Shown here: one piece after another, positions 7,978 through 56,901 of the stretch
How the letters are laid out: each line of letters begins with the position of its first letter
Position numbering within the stretch: position 1 is the stretch's first letter
IMG/VR virus record: IMGVR_UViG_3300026311_000016
Location: 5,615 to 69,614 of that record
Reading direction: 5' to 3' (one strand)
DNA length: 64,000 nt
Source of the DNA: a virus
Taxonomy: Duplodnaviria; Caudoviricetes
Program-made: the position numbers and the translations under genes
Notes under the pieces: model-generated
The model's input: only the letters and a program-made list of their open reading frames with translations
Database searches by the model: none
Told to the model about the DNA's origin: nothing

Positions 7978-9388
7978 AATGTTTTTTAAGTTCTTCGTTG
8001 ATTATATCATCATCTGTTTTCTTGGTTGATGGACTAATTCTCAGATTAATCCCACCACCAGGAGTTATCTGTGTTCCAGTAGACCCACCAAACTGAGGTA
8101 TTGGTTTACCGTCTTTAATAACTGGTGCTACACCAAATCTAGCTTTATAAGCTGATATGAAACGCTCTAAATCATCACCACGACCAAGCCCACCTCCACT
8201 AAATCCACCAAATTTCATATTAACGTTGTTATTAAAGAGATCAATCATCTCTTTTTCTTCTTGAGGCTTAATCTGTGTCTCATAATTAATTTCGGCTTGT
8301 TTGGATGCTTCGTTATAACTCTGTGTTGTAAATTGTCCTTTATCCAAAAAAGTATCACGAGCATCATAAGCTTTTTTCTGTCTAATTTTTAGTTCTTCCA
8401 ACTCACGTTTAATCTTCTCAGTCTGTTGATTATAGATGTTGGGGCTTGCTTTCTTAGCGTCTGTATTCTTCAAATGAGCATCTAATTGAGCACCCTTCTG
8501 ATAGATTTTAGTATCAATAGATGTTATAAGGTCATCAAATACATCAACAGAAACAGGTTTGTTCGTAGATTGCAGCTGTCGAATCTGCTGATCCATTTCT
8601 TTAAGTTCGAGTCTTAGTTCATTAGCTTCTTTAGCTGCCAGTGTTTCATATGCCTTTTCTCTTGCTTTAGGATCGTATTGATCAAGTCCAGGAGAAGTCC
8701 ATACTTCATCTGATCTCTTAACCATACTCGTAATATCATCAACTTGAGCATATATATCAGATGATCTCTGCTGCTCAACATCATACTGTTTCTGATTGAG
8801 ATCCAACTGAGACTGATTCTGCATACCAAGCTCAGTCTCCAACTCACCACCCCGACCAAACCTTCTATTAAACGTCTTCTGATACTGTTCATCTTCCATC
8901 ATGGCTTTACCAGTTGTCGTATAGTTCTTAAACGCCTCTCTGGTAACACCTGACTTGAATCCAGCAAACAGATCACCCTCTGTTAATACTCCGTTAGCTT
9001 TAGCCTTAGCAGCTTCTACAATAGGAGCTATAGAGTCTATAGCTAAACGCTTAACATAATCTTCGTTAGATAGCTTATCGCTTAACTTAGAAGGATCTAA
9101 TATCTGTTGTTTGAGGAGGTTTCTAGCCTGTTGAGGATCATTAGGATCATATTGTAATCCCATCGATGAAGCAATGTTAGTCACCTTAGTATCATCTAAC
9201 CAGTCAATCCATTCCTGTATCTCAGTGTAGGCTTTCTGTTTGAAAAAACGATTCTCTTTAATCTGTTGGTTTAGATCCCACAACTCAGGAAAAGCATTAG
9301 CTGTTTTACTAATAGCAGCACCAATATCACCCAACCATGAAAAATCTGTCCTGAAATCCCCAGGATTATACCCGTAAAAACCACTCAT
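7964..9388 (-). CDS. putative internal virion/ejection protein
   Basis: 474 aa, helical and Q-rich with a Gly-rich C-terminus; lies between the nozzle and the giant virion gene. Confidence 0.55.
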   Translation of the reverse strand: MSGFYGYNPGDFRTDFSWLGDIGAAISKTANAFPELWDLNQQIKENRFFKQKAYTEIQEWIDWLDDTKVTNIASSMGLQYDPNDPQQARNLLKQQILDPSKLSDKLSNEDYVKRLAIDSIAPIVEAAKAKANGVLTEGDLFAGFKSGVTREAFKNYTTTGKAMMEDEQYQKTFNRRFGRGGELETELGMQNQSQLDLNQKQYDVEQQRSSDIYAQVDDITSMVKRSDEVWTSPGLDQYDPKAREKAYETLAAKEANELRLELKEMDQQIRQLQSTNKPVSVDVFDDLITSIDTKIYQKGAQLDAHLKNTDAKKASPNIYNQQTEKIKRELEELKIRQKKAYDARDTFLDKGQFTTQSYNEASKQAEINYETQIKPQEEKEMIDLFNNNVNMKFGGFSGGGLGRGDDLERFISAYKARFGVAPVIKDGKPIPQFGGSTGTQITPGGGINLRISPSTKKTDDDIINEELKKHYDKN

Positions 9389-9810
9389 TATAAGAATCTC
9401 CGTCTGTTAATCTTCAACGGATCAAGGTTCTGATCTGCTGTCTGTTCAAGGATACTCTGGTTAGCTGTATCTTCAATAAACTGTTTCTGTTTATTCTGTT
9501 CATTAATCTGAGTACCTAACAAAGATCTATTAAAATTAATAAAGTTCTGATTGTTCTCCAATTGTCTTTCAGTGAGTTTATTCTGTTCAGCCTGGAACTT
9601 CAAAGTATCACGTCTTTGTATCTCAGCTAATCTACGAGCTTCTTCACGTGCTCTCTCATTCTCACGTTTACTAGCAACACCTTTACCTATAGCTGTTCCT
9701 GCTGTTATTAGTGCGTTTGCTATAACTAATATAGCTTGTACATAAGCTCTACGAGAACCGACCACTACATATCTGTTAGATCCACGATTAACTTTATTCC
9801 TAACAACCAT
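9388..9810 (-). CDS. putative ejection protein, partial paralog of 9810-10442
   Basis: Gly/Ala hydrophobic segment followed by NERAREEARRLAEIQRRDTLK; TAATG overlaps with neighbours. Confidence 0.55.
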   Translation of the reverse strand: MVVRNKVNRGSNRYVVVGSRRAYVQAILVIANALITAGTAIGKGVASKRENERAREEARRLAEIQRRDTLKFQAEQNKLTERQLENNQNFINFNRSLLGTQINEQNKQKQFIEDTANQSILEQTADQNLDPLKINRRRFL

Positions 9811-12649: not shown

Positions 12650-12678
12650 AATATGTAGAATAAAATTATAGAAGTCAA
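12650..12678 (-). promoter_or_regulatory. sigma70-like promoter, TCTATA-spacer class
   Basis: minus strand TTGACT-tctataattttattcta(17)-CATATT. Confidence 0.7.
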
Positions 12679-12878
12679 GGATTATTTTCTAGATTTGTTA
12701 TTCTTCTTTTCAACAAGATGATCTCATCCATTAATTCTTTTTTTATATCATCATGCTCCTTTTTATTCCACTGTAAAATTCTTATTAATTCGTCCCATAT
12801 TGATGATAAATGGTCTTGTACATTTTTAATAATAGTATCTGGATATATCTTAAAAATAGGTTTGTTCAATTTATACAT
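12675..12878 (-). CDS. small coiled-coil hypothetical protein
   Basis: start reassigned to the ATG at 12878, which overlaps the upstream stop (TAATG). Confidence 0.5.
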   Translation of the reverse strand: MYKLNKPIFKIYPDTIIKNVQDHLSSIWDELIRILQWNKKEHDDIKKELMDEIILLKRRITNLENNP

Positions 12879-14020
12879 TAGAATACCACCGGACAAATGT
12901 TATCAAAGTTGTTTTTACTTCCATCTTTATACATATATTCAAGAACATCGTCTATAGTAGCAACCGTACTCTTTTTAACTAATCTAAAATCAAAGAGTGA
13001 GGTATTTTCGTCTATGTTTATAGTTAATAATTCTCCACTAAAACCGCTATTAAGCTGCCATTCACCATAACACAACACATAACCATTGATCTCATACTCT
13101 GACACAATAACATTTAAATCTGCGTCTGGTGTGGAAAACAAAGCATCTCCACTTAAAGTTGTCTTTTTGATCCATACAAACACATAGTAATCAGTGGTTG
13201 ATGTTATTGATGGGAGTGTGAATAAAGGCACAGACTCTGTTATCGATACAGCAGTATCATTATTGTCAGGCCCAGTAGTTAAAACCCCACCAATAGTATA
13301 TTTAGTTATTTTTTCAATTAGAGGGTTACTACGAGTTATTCTTCTATATACATTAGACAACACCTGTTGACATAAACCTTCATTTAATACTCGTATATCT
13401 GGTGTTTCATTGATATCTTTAACTATATAATCCTGCTGTCTACCAACTAATTTAAAACCAGATTTATTAGCTTTAAAAGCAGTTTGAAGTCTGTGACCCT
13501 CCACTTTCTTATCGTAAACTATTTCACCTGTAACTGGTATCTTTTTAGCAGAGGCTGTGCTGATATCAGGTACTCCATCAGCGTATATTTCTGCTGTGAA
13601 TTCTATATCCTGCGGATATCCATTAGAATCATATCCTATTACATCTCTATTCCTTTCATCGTATGGACGAACGTAAAATCTACTGGTGTCGTGTTCAACT
13701 AAGAATTTCTCGTATTCTCCAGTGTCTTCTTTAAACCTAATTTCTGGTTCTATGTCAAATCCGCCAGTTCCATCGGTTTCAACTTTATCTTTAAATTCGT
13801 TAGTAACATATGAACCACCAGGACCCTCTCTCATAGCAATATCATAGAATCTGCCATCTCTAAAATCCAACACGAGTATTCTAACATTGTTATTATTATC
13901 AAGTATTTTGACTACTCCACCACAAGTCTCAGGCATCGGCCAATATCCAGTATACTCTGTAAAATCTATACCTTGATCATATTTTATTCCCAATTTAATA
14001 CTCCTGTCACTGAGAGCCAT
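12878..14020 (-). CDS. tail nozzle (tubular protein B / P22 gp10-like), C-terminal part
   Basis: GRFYDI...D..G..I.PEIRF pattern resembling the post-propeller region of nozzle proteins; appears to continue 16635-18821. Confidence 0.55.
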   Translation of the reverse strand: MALSDRSIKLGIKYDQGIDFTEYTGYWPMPETCGGVVKILDNNNNVRILVLDFRDGRFYDIAMREGPGGSYVTNEFKDKVETDGTGGFDIEPEIRFKEDTGEYEKFLVEHDTSRFYVRPYDERNRDVIGYDSNGYPQDIEFTAEIYADGVPDISTASAKKIPVTGEIVYDKKVEGHRLQTAFKANKSGFKLVGRQQDYIVKDINETPDIRVLNEGLCQQVLSNVYRRITRSNPLIEKITKYTIGGVLTTGPDNNDTAVSITESVPLFTLPSITSTTDYYVFVWIKKTTLSGDALFSTPDADLNVIVSEYEINGYVLCYGEWQLNSGFSGELLTINIDENTSLFDFRLVKKSTVATIDDVLEYMYKDGSKNNFDNICPVVF

Positions 14021-14263
14021 TTATTCCTCATTTGTTTCAACATTGACAAAAAAACCGAAACATTTATTGGTCTTTCTCGGTATTTGTTCTACAGAATAAA
14101 CATAAATATAAAGTACTTTGGTTATAGGATTTCTTATATCATCAATATCATCCCATACTGTTAATGTAACAGTATACCTGCCAGGATATATATATTCGTG
14201 AGTCGGTACTTCTTCTGTACTCGATGAACCATCACCAAAGTCCCAATGATATCTGATAGCCAT
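14021..14263 (-). CDS. C-terminal half of a PKD (Ig-like) domain
   Basis: WDFGDGSSSTEEVPTHEYIYPGRYTVTLTV; lacks the first PKD strands; RBS GAGG; its TAA is directly followed by an in-frame ATG. Confidence 0.8.
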   Translation of the reverse strand: MAIRYHWDFGDGSSSTEEVPTHEYIYPGRYTVTLTVWDDIDDIRNPITKVLYIYVYSVEQIPRKTNKCFGFFVNVETNEE

Positions 14264-14457
14264 TATTTATCCTCTAATGACTTTTTAAGTTCTTCCAATT
14301 CTTTTTTAATTATTTCTAAATCCTGTTGTGCTTTTATAGCAGCATCATAAAATGGTTTAATTAGACTTAAAATTTCTCTCTGAAATCTGCCAGCAAGAAT
14401 ATCTGTTTCTCCAAGCACCACATCCCAATTAACACTTATGTTTTTTTCTTCGTTCAT
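14263..14457 (-). CDS. small coiled-coil protein, possible fibre chaperone
   Basis: 64 aa with a C-terminal heptad pattern. Confidence 0.45.
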   Translation of the reverse strand: MNEEKNISVNWDVVLGETDILAGRFQREILSLIKPFYDAAIKAQQDLEIIKKELEELKKSLEDK

Positions 14458-14954
14458 TCTCCTAACTCCTTTACGTTTTTTGTTTGATTATGAACATATA
14501 ATCCATTTGAATCTTTTAACCAAGAACGATCAAAATTTACACTTCTGAATGCTTTATAAATAATACCAATTTCATCTTTCCATTCATCTCTGGATTTAGT
14601 TTTTCTTTCAATCATTTTTCTGTATACAGATTTAAATAATTCCGTGTTATTTCCATTATAAATAAACTGATCAAAGAAAGGAAATAATAAAGGATCATCA
14701 CCTAAAATAATCTCATCTTTAATCTCTATTCCCCAATCAACAAAGCACGAATATGGGTTTTCTATTAATAATTCAATTCTCATCCATTCACTCGCTACTA
14801 CCGGAGATAGGCCTTTAAGTTTTTCAGGCTGCTCAATGATCACCTTGTATTCATACCCGTTCTTTTCAGCCCACTTCTGAACTGTTAACATATACCCCCG
14901 AATTGTTTCGGGGATTTCACCGATTGCTATTTGGAAGTTTGTTTTTTTATTCAT
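14454..14954 (-). CDS. degenerate glycosyltransferase-like protein
   Basis: QIAIG.IP, WAEKNGYEY and ASEWMRIELL...SCFVDWG resemble the GT32/GT34 ASD..R..L...GG.Y.D.D pattern but lack an intact DxD. Confidence 0.4.
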   Translation of the reverse strand: MNKKTNFQIAIGEIPETIRGYMLTVQKWAEKNGYEYKVIIEQPEKLKGLSPVVASEWMRIELLIENPYSCFVDWGIEIKDEIILGDDPLLFPFFDQFIYNGNNTELFKSVYRKMIERKTKSRDEWKDEIGIIYKAFRSVNFDRSWLKDSNGLYVHNQTKNVKELGE

Positions 14955-14990
14955 GTTTATTCCGTATAAAAAATGAACCTACCTTTACTA

Positions 14991-16454
14991 TCATGGTTTC
15001 AACTCCGCAGGACCGAGCCAAATGTTTGAAACTACCGCATATACCGGGTAGTCGTCATAATCCACTCCGATGCAGCGCAACATTAAACCCTCCCGCGGAA
15101 ACAGGTTTGGACCCTGTGAACCATACGCCGCCAGTAGCTCAATGGTATAGCTATGTGACTCGTTCACGATAAATATCTCATCACCTTCTCTTGCATTTGA
15201 AAAATATACTTTTGGTGATGAGGTTAAATTCGTATTTAGTCTGAAATTCCAGGTGGTCTCACTATTGAGATTTATAACAGTGTTTGTGGTAGTAATGGAC
15301 TTTCTTACAAACGTTCCTGTGTTGAGTTTGTTGGTAGATGTTTTGCCGTTTACAAGTGTATTTCCTTCAACCTCAAGCCTATTACCGCCGACAAAACTAT
15401 TTTTGCCAAAAGCAGTGTTACCATTTAGGTTGGTAAAGATTGCAGGTGTTAATGTTGCTATTTGATCAGCAATACCACTATCTGCAACCTGTACACTAAA
15501 TTGATTGTAGGCAAGTGTCGTTACAACACCACCTGAATTACTACCTGAGCCATATCTATAGCGCCAATTACTACCATCATGATATAAGTTGTGCATAATG
15601 TTCAATGTGGCTGATGGATGGCTATACAAAGTATTATGCTGATCAAGTGCTAAAGTCCATCGGTGATCATTTGCTGGTCTTGTGCCTAAAACTAATTTTG
15701 CAAAAGTTGGTGTGCTTGTCGTCTTTAAAGCTTGATCAAAATATGTTGACCAATCAGTATGACTTACTAGTGTGTGGCTTACTGCTGCTGCGCCAATATC
15801 ATCGCGCACTTGAGCGGCGGTTCTGGTCTTAATTGTATTTTCTTCGTGAGTAAGAAATACCGATGCTGCCGTTGATTTTTCAGGTATAATATTAACTGTC
15901 AAATCTGTATTCAATATGGTATTTTTAGAATTACTATCAATATTTTGAAATGTAGCTAAATCAACAAAGGTTCCTGGACTATCGGGATCTTCCGCTTGAA
16001 TTTTTATAGGAATACCATATGTAGTTCTAATTACATTATCATCACCAACTATTCCAATAGTCATACCATCGTTATCATCAGAAGAACCTCTACTCGCATT
16101 TGTTATTTGTATTAAACAATTTCCTGTAGATGGTTCATGGAAATGAGCTCTATTTTGTGGTGCTTCTATATTTACACCAAGTTTATTATCATTATATACA
16201 AACGTGGTACTATGTGAAGCACTACCTTCACTATCTGCTATAAACACACAGTTTTTAGGAGTAAGAGATGAACCACTTGCATCAGTTAAACACTTCTTTA
16301 AATTACCAAGAAGATCGCTATAACCAAATTTTTTCTGATCTGTTATCAAACATATTTTAGCTATTCCAATGTTTGTATTAAGATAAGAATAAACATTATT
16401 CTTTAATGTTATTTTAACAGCGGTTGATTCTGGTTCGTTATAAATATTAGCCAT
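14991..16454 (-). CDS. tail fibre / receptor-binding protein
   Basis: 487 aa, beta-rich, G.N repeats (KLGVNIEAP, GNTAFGKN) typical of fibre shafts; RBS AGGAG. Confidence 0.65.
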   Translation of the reverse strand: MANIYNEPESTAVKITLKNNVYSYLNTNIGIAKICLITDQKKFGYSDLLGNLKKCLTDASGSSLTPKNCVFIADSEGSASHSTTFVYNDNKLGVNIEAPQNRAHFHEPSTGNCLIQITNASRGSSDDNDGMTIGIVGDDNVIRTTYGIPIKIQAEDPDSPGTFVDLATFQNIDSNSKNTILNTDLTVNIIPEKSTAASVFLTHEENTIKTRTAAQVRDDIGAAAVSHTLVSHTDWSTYFDQALKTTSTPTFAKLVLGTRPANDHRWTLALDQHNTLYSHPSATLNIMHNLYHDGSNWRYRYGSGSNSGGVVTTLAYNQFSVQVADSGIADQIATLTPAIFTNLNGNTAFGKNSFVGGNRLEVEGNTLVNGKTSTNKLNTGTFVRKSITTTNTVINLNSETTWNFRLNTNLTSSPKVYFSNAREGDEIFIVNESHSYTIELLAAYGSQGPNLFPREGLMLRCIGVDYDDYPVYAVVSNIWLGPAELKP

Positions 16455-16465
16455 CTAATCTGCTC

Positions 16466-16642
16466 CTAATTTATATCCTGATATAATATAGTCGAATCGG
16501 TAGTATCCTGTAACAAAATCATACTATCGGTAGTATCCTGAAGATTATAAAAATCGAAATCTACAACAGGATAAAACGTCACTGATAAAGGTGCTAAACC
16601 TCTTATCTTATTAGCATAAAAATCAACTCCAAAATCAGGCAT
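16466..16642 (-). CDS. 58-aa ORF missed by the track: N-terminal part of a PKD domain plus LQDTTDS repeats
   Basis: MPDFGVDFYANKIRGLAPLSVTFYPVVDFDFYNLQDTTDSMILLQDTTDSTILYQDIN; overlaps the nozzle stop; GGGGG RBS; ATCGGTAGTATCCTG at 16496 and 16526. Confidence 0.7.
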   Translation of the reverse strand: MPDFGVDFYANKIRGLAPLSVTFYPVVDFDFYNLQDTTDSMILLQDTTDSTILYQDIN

Positions 16643-18821
16643 TTAACCCCCAAAATATATATCCTATTATTGGATCGTATATACTTGACATATTTGGCTG
16701 CATTTTCTTTAATTCATTCATCATCTTCTTTGAAGCCAAATTTTCTGAAAAGACATTACCATCAAACACTCTTAGTGCTGGTTCGTTAGTAATCATTATA
16801 TGATCCCCATTTTCAAGAGATCTAATACTACCGTAAGCAACAACGCCTATATTATCATCAACAGAAATATTCTGTGTTAATATAGGAACTACGATACCGA
16901 TATCAGATAAATCCAATTCATCATATGATGACATCAGTATATATCTTGTTGAATTAAACCCATAAATAACAAGTTTATCTCTGAGTAATTTTAAAAAGCG
17001 TATCCCGTCTTTGGTAATAAACTGTTGATAAACTGGATGATAATAACCTGATATATAATCATATTCTTCTGTTAGTTGAGAATAATAAATATTTCTATCA
17101 TCTCTAAGAGCAGTGAAAACAAAGCCGGATGAAATAACTCCTATATTACAATTAGGTAAATTCTCATACAATCTCTGATAACAAGTATAAGAAGTTATTC
17201 TTGATCTTAACAAATCATCTGTTATTGTATCGTTAAATGACCTGGATGTAGGTTTCCAACACCCTGTTATATATGTATCATCAAGTTCTATATCTTCAGC
17301 AAAATAAACGTGGTTGTCTACTATCTCTGAAATGTATACATAGACACCATTATCCAAGAAAACCTTATCACCAACAGAAATATTATTGATGGTAGAATAG
17401 TCTGTGTTTAAAGTGAATCCACCAACAGTGTCATCATAATTAAAATAATTACAGTGGGCGGCTCCTAATGATGCGCACGTTTTCTCTACATAAGGCAGGT
17501 TATCATCTATCTCACAGGTATTATTCTCTTCATCAACAGACACAATCACTGTGTCATATGATGTATCTCCATAGTGGGCGTTTATAGTAGATCCTACATC
17601 ATACTTACTCAAACTACCTCTAATAACAGTACATGCAGTACCATTAAAACTAACTTCTAATGCCTTACATACTGGTACATCAGCTATCCATATATATCTT
17701 GATGGATTAGTAGCAGTACCATCAGTTTTATTTAAGCCAGCTTCACTGACATCTGTAGTTCCCCAAATAGTAAATACATCCCAATGATTTTCTTTAACTT
17801 CACCAGCAGGACCATCGATGTTTGGAATGGTTAAATTACCTATAGTATTTCCATTTGAAGGAGATATAGTCTCCTCCATCCAATATTCTGAGTAGTCTAT
17901 ATAATTACTGTCTGGTGTATTTGTTCCACTATCTATCAATAATCGACATCCATTTGTTAGTCTATCTCTATTTTGACCAACACCGGATATTTTTCCAAGA
18001 CCATAAATATATCTTCTACAATATGTACTCGTATCTGTTTTATCTACTCCCGTTAATTTATCCTGTGGAATCAAAGAGTTTATTTTGTAATAAAAATAAG
18101 TCTCGTTTACATTGATGTTTAAATCAAGTCTATAAATACCGCCCTGATTAAATATCAAAAGATAATCATTATATTCGTCTATTGTAGAAATACTATTTTC
18201 AAGAATCTCTGTTGATTCACATATAGCTTTTTTCCATGATGTAATAAATATATCAGATGATACATAAATATCACTACCCAACTGAATCACTATTTTTTTA
18301 AGTGAATTATGGAAATAAATCCCATTCAACTGCTTTCTTATACTGATAGTACCTATATCAAGTATAGTTTCATCTGTTGATATCTGAGTTACTACATTAT
18401 TTTCATCTATGAAATTTATGATCTTTTCATTTATACCATTCTCATAAACTATAAAATCACCTATATTATCCTCAGACCATACATATCCAGATGTCGTAAC
18501 CGTTCTATTATCAGTATCGGCAACTAAAGACACAATAAGAATATCATCAACAGTTGTGGGTAGTATAGCATGTGGCACTCCTGTAGAATAATCCCCCCAC
18601 CGCTTACTCCCACTTCTACTAACAAGCTCAGACCCTTTATTAATGAAGTTCTTTAACTCAGCAATACCATTATCAGGGATAGACGTTCCTGGAATATCTT
18701 TAAATACACCAGCAGAAAAATCTCTCTGTTCACGAGTGATAAATCTTTCTGCTTCCTGTCTACTCATCGGTCTGAATGATTTGCTACTCACATTAATATC
18801 CTCTATACTTGGTATTAGCAA
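16635..18821 (-). CDS. tail nozzle (tubular protein B / P22 gp10-like), N-terminal part
   Basis: 728 aa, beta-propeller-like, directly after the adaptor gene; ends abruptly at SIYDPIIGYIFWGLNA. Confidence 0.65.
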   Translation of the reverse strand: MLIPSIEDINVSSKSFRPMSRQEAERFITREQRDFSAGVFKDIPGTSIPDNGIAELKNFINKGSELVSRSGSKRWGDYSTGVPHAILPTTVDDILIVSLVADTDNRTVTTSGYVWSEDNIGDFIVYENGINEKIINFIDENNVVTQISTDETILDIGTISIRKQLNGIYFHNSLKKIVIQLGSDIYVSSDIFITSWKKAICESTEILENSISTIDEYNDYLLIFNQGGIYRLDLNINVNETYFYYKINSLIPQDKLTGVDKTDTSTYCRRYIYGLGKISGVGQNRDRLTNGCRLLIDSGTNTPDSNYIDYSEYWMEETISPSNGNTIGNLTIPNIDGPAGEVKENHWDVFTIWGTTDVSEAGLNKTDGTATNPSRYIWIADVPVCKALEVSFNGTACTVIRGSLSKYDVGSTINAHYGDTSYDTVIVSVDEENNTCEIDDNLPYVEKTCASLGAAHCNYFNYDDTVGGFTLNTDYSTINNISVGDKVFLDNGVYVYISEIVDNHVYFAEDIELDDTYITGCWKPTSRSFNDTITDDLLRSRITSYTCYQRLYENLPNCNIGVISSGFVFTALRDDRNIYYSQLTEEYDYISGYYHPVYQQFITKDGIRFLKLLRDKLVIYGFNSTRYILMSSYDELDLSDIGIVVPILTQNISVDDNIGVVAYGSIRSLENGDHIMITNEPALRVFDGNVFSENLASKKMMNELKKMQPNMSSIYDPIIGYIFWGLNA

Positions 18822-54855: not shown

Positions 54856-56901
54856 ATGAGCTTAGAAAATTTAAAAGAAGAAAAGCAAGACGAATACTGG
54901 CCCGAACCGGAAAAGAAAGCAGTAACCAAACCGGATTACTGGGGGCCGGACAACCCCCATCCGCTTTCAAAAATGCGGACAGAGCTTGTCTGGGAAGGCA
55001 AGTACGATGAATACGGAAACAGAAGAGAAGTCGATATCGCCGGGTGCGCGATGCCGATGCAGAAGATTGAGACTATTGACCAGCCGAGAGCGGAGGCGAT
55101 GCAACAAGGTAAAGCTATTTCGCTCTTTGAAAAATCAACAACCCGGAAAGATGATTTTCGTAATCGACTTATCTGGGGTGACAACAAGCTTGTGATGGCC
55201 AGTCTGTTGAAAGAATTTAAGGGCCAAGTAAATCTGGTTTATATAGACCCTCCATTTGATGTTGGCGCAGATTTTACCATGACTTTGCCGATCGGCGAAG
55301 ATGGTGAGGGTTTAACCAAAGAGCAATCGACCATGGAGATGGTTGCTTATAGGGATATGTGGGGTAAAGGCACTGATTCTTACCTTAATATGATGTACGA
55401 ACGCCTAACTCTTATTTATCAATTATTAGCAGAAAATGGTAGTTTATACCTTCACTGTGATGGGCGAGTTAGTTACTATTTACGGTCATTACTAAATGAG
55501 ATTTTCACGCCGAACCAATTCAAAACTACAGTGGTTTGGTGTTATAAAACTCGCCAATTTTCAAAAAGGCAATGGAACTCAAAACATGACGATATTCTTT
55601 TTATAACGAAAAATGACAACCATACATTCAACTGGGATGTTGATGGTGTAATTGAGCCATACGCTGATGTAACTGTTAAAAAGTATCGTTTACATGATGA
55701 AAATGGATATTACCGACTATGTGGTAGAGGGATACAAGGTAGTCCCATACGTTCGGCAAAAGATGTTGATCCTAAGTGGGAAATATCAAATCCCGAATTA
55801 GTTGTACGTGATTATCTTGGTAAAGGCTATGCACCTAATGATTACTTACTAATTGATATTGAAAACCAAGTATCAAATGATAGAACAGACTATCCAACAC
55901 AAAAACCTACAAAATTAATAGAAAAACTTATTCTTGCCTCTTCCAATGAAGGCGACCTCGTCGCCGACTTCTTCTGCGGCTCTGGCACAACCGGTGCCGT
56001 TGCCGAACGCCTCGGCCGCCGCTGGATAATGGCCGACCTTGGCCGTTTCGCAATTCATACCAGCCGCAAACGCTTAATTGAACTCCAGCGCGAACTCAGT
56101 AGCCAACAAAAGCCCTACCGCGCCTTCGATGTCTACAATCTTGGCCGCTACGAACGCCAATGGTGGCAAAAAGAAACCTTAAAAGGGGCCGACGAGGAAC
56201 ATCGCCGTGTTGTTCTCGAGTTTTTCCGGGCCGAAATCATCAATCCTACCAGCGCACCTTCCCCTCTTCTTCACGGTCGCAAAGGCCCTGCTTTCTGCCA
56301 TGTCGATTCAATAGATTCCATCTTCACCCGTGATGAAGCCCGTGCCGTAGCAGAAGCAACCTCAAAGGCTGGTGGAAGGGAATGTTATTGCTTATCGTGG
56401 GAATTTGAAATGGATTTGACGCTCACAACCGCTGCGCTCGAACGAGAATACGGAGTTAAGCTTAAACTTATTCGGATTCCACGCGAAATAATGGAGAAAA
56501 ACCGTAAATCACCTCCCCCATTCCTGGAAATGGCTGTCCTCGAAGCAGAACCTGTTTTACGGAAAATCAGTGGTGAATCACAGAAGCGGGTTGATATAAA
56601 GCTCACCAAATTCATGCCTTCACTTGCCGAAGTACCGAGCAAAGAACTTGAAGCGCTCAAGGAACGGGCAATAAAGAGCGGCATGGATTTCATTGATTTC
56701 TGGGCGATTGATTTTGACTGGCACCCGGAAAAGCCGTTCAATCACCACTGGCAAGATTACCGGACACGAAAAGACCGCACGCTCAAAACCGTAAGCGATG
56801 CCGGATATCTTTATCCAAAAGCCGGCGCATACACCGCCTGTGTAAAAGTGGTTGATACTTTCGGTTGCGATACGAGCATTACCGTGGAGATAAAAATATG
56901 A
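54856..56901 (+). CDS. orphan type III Mod-like adenine DNA methyltransferase
   Basis: WEGKYDEYG N-terminus, IDPPF, YPTQKP, DFFCGSGTT (beta class); GC-rich relative to the phage; no res gene. Confidence 0.9.
   Translation: MSLENLKEEKQDEYWPEPEKKAVTKPDYWGPDNPHPLSKMRTELVWEGKYDEYGNRREVDIAGCAMPMQKIETIDQPRAEAMQQGKAISLFEKSTTRKDDFRNRLIWGDNKLVMASLLKEFKGQVNLVYIDPPFDVGADFTMTLPIGEDGEGLTKEQSTMEMVAYRDMWGKGTDSYLNMMYERLTLIYQLLAENGSLYLHCDGRVSYYLRSLLNEIFTPNQFKTTVVWCYKTRQFSKRQWNSKHDDILFITKNDNHTFNWDVDGVIEPYADVTVKKYRLHDENGYYRLCGRGIQGSPIRSAKDVDPKWEISNPELVVRDYLGKGYAPNDYLLIDIENQVSNDRTDYPTQKPTKLIEKLILASSNEGDLVADFFCGSGTTGAVAERLGRRWIMADLGRFAIHTSRKRLIELQRELSSQQKPYRAFDVYNLGRYERQWWQKETLKGADEEHRRVVLEFFRAEIINPTSAPSPLLHGRKGPAFCHVDSIDSIFTRDEARAVAEATSKAGGRECYCLSWEFEMDLTLTTAALEREYGVKLKLIRIPREIMEKNRKSPPPFLEMAVLEAEPVLRKISGESQKRVDIKLTKFMPSLAEVPSKELEALKERAIKSGMDFIDFWAIDFDWHPEKPFNHHWQDYRTRKDRTLKTVSDAGYLYPKAGAYTACVKVVDTFGCDTSITVEIKI

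Follow-up and report, generated by a model that had tools for sequence, protein, structure and literature searches.

The window analysed here is a 64,000-nt stretch of a 69.6-kb IMG/VR virus record (IMGVR_UViG_3300026311_000016) originating from an uncultured podophage. The region 12878-18821 is the tail-tip module of this roughly 70-kb phage, and its overall architecture very probably consists of a nozzle split between two genes and a PKD domain also split between two genes. The open reading frames (ORFs) of the region lie on the minus strand, and encode, in order, products of 728, 58, 487, 166, 64, 80 and 380 amino acids (aa). The genes for the N-part and the C-part of the nozzle are 2.6 kb apart, with five other ORFs between them. 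The PKD halves, carried by the 58-aa and 80-aa ORFs, are separated by three genes, which form a 2.2-kb cassette. The order of the ORFs, their overlaps, the ribosome binding sites and ATG codons, the TAA-ATG junctions and the LQDTTDS repeat, described earlier in a first-pass annotation of this DNA, are all present in the ORF map. Coordinates are given in Table 1.

Table 1. Features of the tail-tip region of the window, from the highest to the lowest coordinate (AF2, AlphaFold2; HMM, hidden Markov model)
Feature	Position	Strand	Remarks
Adaptor-like protein, 195 aa	18793..19380	-	Immediately 5' of the nozzle gene; assigned from position and weak homology only
Nozzle N-part, 728 aa	16635..18821	-	Platform and beta-propeller; AF2 model, VIA-align
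PKD A-B strand ORF, 58 aa	16466..16642	-	Strands VDFYANKIRGLAPLSVTF and acidic tail; N-half HMM
30-nt tandem repeat (direct repeat D5)	16474..16533	-	Encodes LQDTTDS(M/T)(I/T)L twice
Tail fibre, 487 aa	14991..16454	-	ORF map
Fibre N-terminal anchor part, ~223 aa	15786..16454	-	Conserved; blastn homology to L001 and L002
Fibre distal (receptor-binding) part	14991..15785	-	Variable, exchanged among close relatives
Accessory protein, 166 aa	14454..14954	-	Glycosyltransferase-like, a lead only
Small protein, 64 aa	14263..14457	-	ORF map; coiled-coil is the label of the first-pass annotation
PKD C-G strand ORF, 80 aa	14021..14263	-	WDFGDG...HEY...YTVTLTV and junction motif RKTNKCF; Pfam PKD_4
Nozzle C-part, 380 aa	12878..14020	-	Residues 1-204, nozzle beta-sandwich; residues 212-369, lectin/CBM-like jelly roll; AF2, VIA-align

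The 728-aa ORF ends with ...SIYDPIIGYIFWGLNA, and its C-terminus GYIFWGLNA is followed by TGA. The start of the 58-aa ORF overlaps this stop codon (ATGCCTGA), a TAA is found just before its ATG in the same frame, and a run of G residues (GGGGG) upstream provides the Shine-Dalgarno sequence. The 80-aa ORF is preceded by a GAGGA Shine-Dalgarno sequence, and cannot extend because of an in-frame stop located two codons 5' of its ATG. Its 3' end reads GAGGAA-TAA-ATG, where the ATG opens the 380-aa ORF in the same frame and GAGGAA is the Shine-Dalgarno sequence of the latter. No terminator was found inside the operon by scanning the region, and promoter and terminator scans gave nothing exceeding shuffled sequences; 12878-18821 reads as one late operon. 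Att-like or inverted repeats flanking the cassette were sought, and none was found. The window comes from a metagenomic virus record, and the first-pass annotation had left room for misassembly. The same junctions, however, are found in more than 10 independent contigs from different samples, and recur in the independent metagenomes L001-L003 and L011-L017. Misassembly is unlikely, and an assembly or sequencing artefact is an extremely improbable explanation of the locus.

The 728-, 380-, 58-, 487-, 166- and 64-aa ORFs have no match in Pfam or PHROGs, and the window has no match in the INPHARED phage collection by either blastn or tblastn. Sequence-profile searches of the PDB (queries A1, A2 and A3) returned nothing useful, and no sequence similarity to any solved nozzle was detected; a search of IMG/VR for related loci with query A1 had no result. 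A profile built from 16 homologues of the 380-aa ORF was used to search 1.84 billion cluster representatives for relatives. The family includes 598 representatives at E <= 1e-3, 160 of which have been examined in detail. In 23 of the 160 the C-part domain is the C-terminal end of a protein of 726-1512 aa, and the remainder of these fused proteins matches an HMM made only from stand-alone homologues of the 728-aa ORF. In representative P0072 the match to the 728-aa ORF spans residues 2-741 (E 2e-59) and ends with GYMLYGKTA, the 380-like domain beginning at residue 743. The same pattern is found in the fused proteins P0081 and P0093. P0093 (1483 aa) features also a Kelch-repeat insertion in the N-part (residues 443-657, Pfam 2.9e-19).

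AF2 models of the 728-aa ORF (predicted local distance difference test, pLDDT, 86; predicted template modelling score, pTM, 0.85) and of the 380-aa ORF (pLDDT 92) have been compared by VIA-align to 48,161 PDB chains. Global Foldseek matches of both models, to tandem jelly rolls and generic propellers with template modelling scores < 0.3, were uninformative. The 728-aa model matches the N-parts of the nozzles of Pa223 (Z 20.9), crAss001 (20.5), SU10 (19.0), Sf6 (18.6), Pam1 (17.6), LME-1 (15.4), Carin-1 (15.1), A4 (14.2) and T7 (13.6). Matches to Pa223, crAss001, SU10, Sf6, Pam1, GP4 and VP1 (Z 16.6-20.9) exceed those to generic WD40/propeller proteins (about 14-15). By these matches the 728-aa ORF has the platform and seven-bladed beta-propeller fold, and it follows the putative adaptor gene. 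The 195-aa adaptor-like ORF is similar to a 217-aa protein encoded at locus L022 (BLASTP E 6e-6), and the latter matches Pfam SU10_adaptor (30.7 bits, cut-off 27).

Residues 1-204 of the 380-aa model match the C-parts of ten solved nozzles (A4, Pa223, SU10, Sf6, LME-1, Carin-1, Kp7, crAss001, Pam1 and T7) with Z 6.9-8.7. Each single Z is middling, but all ten nozzles fall within the top 50 of the 48,161 chains. The ranges matched by the 728-aa and 380-aa models abut in each of the nozzles Pa223 (7-318 and 323-513), SU10 (6-792 and 797-1005), LME-1 (7-444 and 442-818), Carin-1 (13-504 and 502-830), A4 (21-652 and 655-1010) and T7 (7-519 and 517-791). Residues 212-369 match instead the Hc-N domain of botulinum neurotoxin (BoNT), CBM22 and CBM6 at Z 7-9. 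The 380-aa ORF had been taken in the first-pass annotation as the nozzle C-terminus; fused relatives and abutting structural matches bear this out, and the assignment is firm because the ten nozzle matches form a consistent set and are joined by the 23 fused sequences.

The window nozzle resembles canonical nozzles (T7 gp12, SU10 gp17, Sf6/P22, Pam1, A4 gp31, the crAss001 muzzle) in being encoded after the adaptor gene, and in the fold of both parts, with Z 13.6-20.9 for the N-part and 6.9-8.7 for the C-part by model alignment. It differs because it is made of two polypeptides encoded by two ORFs, and because the C-part has an extra C-terminal lectin-like (sugar-binding-like) jelly roll. In SU10, the nozzle C-terminal region hosts a short-fibre dock loop with W839, W847 and W857 (PMC9509320). 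Since all solved nozzles are single chains, the split nozzle is a derived state. The cut occurs at a defined point: the natural C-end of the N-part, GY[IL]FWG, is conserved in all relatives, and at L005 the N-part and C-part genes are adjacent and overlap by ATGA, with nothing in between and no PKD. A split nozzle has been described in Pseudomonas phage A1002, in which the nozzle-rope gp39 and the nozzle-base gp42 complete each other via beta-strands, and the fibre genes gp40 and gp41 are located between them (PMC13730344, Nov 2026). The two nozzle genes flank fibre genes in the window as well. The partition is however opposite. In A1002 the upstream gene encodes the platform-C and propeller-C pieces, and the downstream gene the N-terminal core (PMC13730344), whereas in the window the upstream gene encodes the N-terminal core and the downstream gene the C-terminal piece. 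A1002 moreover has neither a split PKD nor a small A-B strand ORF. The 380-aa ORF had no match by tblastn in the phage collection (August 2025), which may not include A1002.

The 80-aa ORF matches Pfam PKD_4 (1.4e-14, 54.3 bits, cut-off 27) over profile positions 35-74 of 85 only, and Pfam PKD with 41.8 bits, above the gathering cut-off (23.5); a complete and contiguous seven-strand PKD is not encoded by this ORF. The 58-aa ORF by itself has no Pfam match. The N-halves of 12 full PKDs of the C-part family, and nothing else, were used to build an HMM, which was run on the 5,896 six-frame ORFs that the window and all loci provide. The 58-aa ORF ranked third (E 5.5e-3), and was the best match within the window. 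The top nine matches are exactly the small ORFs and one positive control, and the first unrelated match has E 0.16. When the halves are joined, the Pfam PKD match grows from profile positions 30-69 to 14-69. The small ORFs align colinearly to the N-terminal ends of P0053, P0118, P0165 and L031, all with a full PKD, initial methionine included; the shared pattern is M-x(2-6)-[FI]-x-A-...-G-x-x-P-L-x-V-x-F. The first-pass annotation had regarded the PKD as cut in two, and the half-profile Pfam match, the N-half HMM and the colinearity agree that the cut is genuine.

The window PKD shares with the PKD/Ig-like (immunoglobulin-like) domains of phage structural proteins (PF18911, PF00801) the signature WDFGDG...H.Y...Y.V.L.V of the 80-aa ORF, and full PKDs are found at the same position in 18 relatives. 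It differs from them in being divided after strand B into two ORFs. Of the 160 representatives of the C-part family, 54 lack a PKD, 21 feature a half PKD, 18 a full PKD at the N-terminus, and 19 a longer N-terminal extension that includes a PKD. The 21 half-PKD proteins begin within 5-10 residues of WxFGDG; in P0012, P0014 and 19 further representatives the counterpart of the 80-aa ORF and the C-part form one protein. The first-pass annotation had imagined a single-chain nozzle-PKD-nozzle ancestor. Relatives in which pieces are fused do exist, as in 23 of 160 representatives for the nozzle and at L031 for PKD and C-part, but the one-chain nozzle-PKD-nozzle form was not found, as all 23 fused representatives lack a PKD at the junction, and this part of the proposal is not supported.

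The C-terminal PKD half (PKD-C) has an ORF of its own in the window and in L011-L017, which share 94-99% identity with the window over the 380-aa protein. It is separate also in L018 (54% identical over the same protein), where PKD-C is an 83-aa ORF, and a 51-aa ORF lies between PKD-C and the C-part. It may be asked whether the pieces are rejoined by recoding, either by read-through of the TAA between the 80-aa and 380-aa ORFs or by a shift of frame from the 728-aa ORF into the 58-aa ORF. A single TAA separates the 80-aa and 380-aa ORFs, which share a frame, and P0012 and P0014 are naturally fused at this very point. The 380-aa ORF has however its own Shine-Dalgarno sequence and ATG, the 51-aa ORF of L018 interrupts the series, and recoding could not get past the 2.2-kb cassette that parts the PKD halves. 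Recoding is thus a very improbable explanation. The frameshift from the 728-aa to the 58-aa ORF has been rejected, as a TAA directly precedes the 58-aa ATG and no slippery site is shared with L010, L021 and L024. The notion that the tail of the 80-aa ORF is a duplicate of the 380-aa head was also rejected, since 1996 of 2000 shuffles scored as high; the fused forms have a single TN[KR]SF.YG junction, which each of the two resembles by eye only.

Small ORFs of 54-69 aa are found right after the nozzle N-part in five lineages, the window clade (58 aa), L010 (63 aa), L021 (69 aa), L024 (56 aa) and L029 (54 aa). All consist of PKD strands A-B and an acidic tail, and are followed by a fibre gene. 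The nozzles of the L010, L021, L024 and L029 lineages are 31-47% identical to that of the window, yet the strand pattern G..(P)L.V.F is invariant across the five. The tails are acidic in all five (5-11 D+E vs 0-3 K+R), and that of L024 is made by IEVDSAVDRI repeated twice. In four of the five lineages (window clade, L010, L021 and L024) the contig reaches the C-part, which starts exactly at WxFGDG; L029 shows the same start of the arrangement, its contig ending inside the fibre gene. The N-terminal motif of the window fibre recurs in the fibres of L010, L021 and L029. Within the window clade the 58-aa ORF is known in 18 variants (75-100% identity); one is 61 aa long, and all the others 58 aa. 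Hardly any change is seen among these in the core VDFYANKIRGLAPLSVTF or in either QDTTDS motif, and the tail of the window ORF has 7 D+E and 0 K+R.

The small ORF is present at all four half-PKD loci that have the canonical nozzle/fibre arrangement and the nozzle in view, and is absent at all four loci whose C-part has either a full PKD or none (L005, L009, L030 and L031). In L031, where the PKD is uncut, a 475-aa protein comprising full PKD and C-part starts 3 nt after the N-part, and the fibre is downstream. In L009 and L030 a full PKD is found on a separate protein. Two half-PKD loci with the nozzle in view, L019 and L022, lack the small ORF, and the A-B strands are found elsewhere. In L019 and L020 they are the C-end (...ALEVSFSPIETYVAE) of a 272-aa NHL/beta-propeller-like protein (L019:9900-10030), and the 427-aa half-PKD C-part starts 7 nt on in another frame, with no gene between the halves. 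This junction (stop, 7 nt, frame change) is identical in the two samples. In L022 (10001-11614, P0190) the C-part starts with PKD strands C-F (residues 2-42), and A-B-like strands VDFYALPAWGQSELAVRFT are found at residues 66-93, followed by IDYIHV; the second HMM match is weak (6 bits). To judge from the order of the strands, the L022 C-part may be a circularly permuted PKD.

The best explanation of the whole, which we hold to be rather probable, is that the tail-tip module has a split nozzle and a split PKD, the latter reassembled in trans. The order of events suggested by the comparison would be fission of the nozzle, addition of a PKD at the N-end of the C-part, as still uncut in L031, and insertion of the fibre. 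The tail-fibre gene would have landed in the coding sequence of the PKD B-C loop. Of the two resulting stumps, the 5' one would have kept the old start codon, coupled to the nozzle stop, and become the 58-aa protein, made by strands A-B and a new acidic repeat tail. The 3' stump would have gained its own Shine-Dalgarno site and ATG, and in the window clade the TAA-ATG would further part it from the C-part, to give the 80-aa protein. The A-B hairpin of the small protein would complete the half PKD in trans, and form a non-covalent joint at the nozzle C-part. The acidic tail would be presented at this joint, probably for fibre docking or assembly.

Reassembly of the PKD halves in trans, taken alone, is a proposal for which the chances look evenly balanced. 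It is suggested by the A-B hairpin, as its 25 residues cannot fold alone and yet are the best conserved of the small ORFs, and by L019 and L022, since these also keep the A-B strands in other topologies. Several data weigh against it. Joining the halves improves the Pfam PKD score by 4 bits only, from 41.8 to 45.8. The window encodes PKD-C as a free 80-aa chain, detached from the C-part. At L025 the C-part has a half PKD but other genes as neighbours, and no N-terminal PKD half (PKD-N) was seen there. In pairwise comparisons of close relatives the ratio of nonsynonymous to synonymous substitutions (dN/dS) is 0.56-2.7 for the 58-aa ORF, on about 10 substitutions, and 0.13-0.33 for the nozzle. 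Finally, the half-PKD state is scattered on a FastTree phylogeny of the C-part, where at least 11 changes are forced. Fused and split forms, and half, full and no-PKD states, are interleaved in this tree, as exemplified by the sister proteins P0128 (C-part alone) and P0131 (fused). Rows scored as C-part alone may hide separate PKD-C ORFs, as in the window, and the counts are upper bounds. Such a tree reflects either frequent fission and fusion or frequent recombination at the junction.

From some of these data it could be argued that the PKD pieces are insertion scars, the small ORF serving as a translational-coupling spacer between nozzle and fibre and the half PKD being a dispensable decoration. 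Such an origin would fit the dN/dS values, the lack of a Pfam match for the 58-aa ORF alone, the failure to see PKD-N in L025, and the 54 of 160 family members devoid of any PKD. It would leave unaccounted for the invariance of G..(P)L.V.F across five lineages with nozzles so divergent, five strongly acidic tails, an ORF length kept in 18 variants, a small ORF which tracks the half-PKD state (4/4 vs 0/4), and the A-B strands retained in L019 and L022. We consider scars and spacers improbable. The case for a function of the 58-aa ORF rests on deep conservation, because recent constraint on the whole ORF is not demonstrated by dN/dS.

The conserved and often repeated acidic tails suggest a function of their own, and the fibre N-terminal domain co-occurs with the small ORF in four to five lineages. 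The small protein might accordingly be functional, as a fibre-assembly chaperone or an acidic adaptor, and be unpaired with PKD-C, a free chain in the window; the half PKD would be completed by the fibre N-terminus, by the nozzle N-part or by some other partner. The A-B residues are however the best conserved, a fact not easily accounted for if they no longer had a PKD-like partner to fold against, and in L019 PKD-N is immediately next to PKD-C. A functional but unpaired small protein is in our opinion unlikely.

Pairing in trans would resemble donor-strand complementation. In chaperone-usher pilins, the Ig fold is incomplete, lacking one G strand, which is donated by the next subunit. The resemblance is limited to the proposed principle of an Ig-like sandwich completed by strands of another chain; in the window, two N-terminal strands (A-B) would be donated by a dedicated 58-aa protein. 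More tentatively, judging from the arrangements of the strands alone, the PKD cut after strand B could be a natural two-piece 'snap fastener' of phage tails. The A-B hairpin would be carried by a tiny protein (window, L010, L021, L024 and L029), by the C-terminus of a different tail protein (L019), or by a later part of the chain itself (L022), and would complete the C-G half on the nozzle C-part.

What is exchanged at the cassette has been analysed by blastn. Homology between the window and its close relatives runs from the nozzle gene through the 58-aa ORF to the first 223 codons of the fibre, ends at window 15786-15789, and resumes at about 14977, just before the 166-aa gene. The segment 14977-15786 has no homology to L001, L011, L013, L014, L016 and L017, and extra optional genes are found at the exchanged segment in L011, L013, L014, L016 and L017. 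The fibre allele of L001 is 1091 aa long, and matches tail-fibre PHROGs, as phrog_9574 (4.9e-26). The first-pass annotation had envisaged the PKD halves as a socket for the swapping of the whole cassette. The alignments do not agree with this, as only the distal fibre and optional genes are exchanged; host-range variation comes from distal fibre swapping, not from exchange of the whole stretch that the PKD halves enclose.

On the right side of the cassette, synonymous divergence (dS) from L015 and L016 is 0.04-0.09 for the 64-aa and 80-aa ORFs, 0.20 for the 380-aa ORF, and about 0.5 for the next ORF of 73 aa. From these values window 14021-14457 looks like a segment recently shared by recombination. 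The 64-aa protein is identical in L011-L017. Homologues of the 166-aa ORF travel with the fibre in L004 (189 aa), L022 (185 aa), L011 (170 aa) and L013 (168 aa). The 166-aa product had been called glycosyltransferase-like in the first-pass annotation. Among its look-alikes in the ESM Atlas (0.93) are virus clusters that carry Glyco_transf_8 or Gb3_synth, in line with the label, but Pfam and PHROGs give no match, and the label is retained as a lead only.

Other features of the region and of its relatives deserve mention. In L030, a gene similar to homing endonucleases (9015-9560; Pfam HNH_3, 1.6e-7, and AP2, 3.6e-5) is located directly after the nozzle N-part, at the junction that in other lineages holds fibre genes or PKD pieces. 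ORFs from window 12675-12896, L009:8478-, L010:2483-, L018:640-795 and L004:4980-5255 share a recurring short N-terminal module (..P.L.G......I.......LW..I..). This begins both small ORFs and long fibre-like proteins located just 3' of the nozzle C-part, and may be, on the basis of the shared motif, another anchor module. A weak PKD_4 match (18.4 bits, below the cut-off) was found at window ~56776-56895, on the plus strand, inside a 712-aa open frame.

The split nozzle itself is known from A1002; the new element is a conserved split PKD, the first two strands of which are encoded by a dedicated small ORF. No report of a naturally split PKD was found in the literature searched, and this would be, if the reassembly in trans is true, the first natural split PKD/Ig domain in that literature. 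It would also represent a compact docking device where fibres meet the tail. The podophage nozzle tolerates a cut at a defined point, where fibre genes, PKD domains and even a homing-endonuclease-like gene are found. The C-part family is large (598 cluster representatives) and entirely uncharacterised. The data bear on the annotation of tail genes in metagenomic phages, where ORFs as small as 58 aa are usually discarded, as well as on the exchange of tail modules and on the design of split-domain connectors. If the PKD cut after strand B does work as a snap fastener, it would provide phages with a non-covalent connector that can be reused where fibres dock, and protein engineering with a new split-domain tag.

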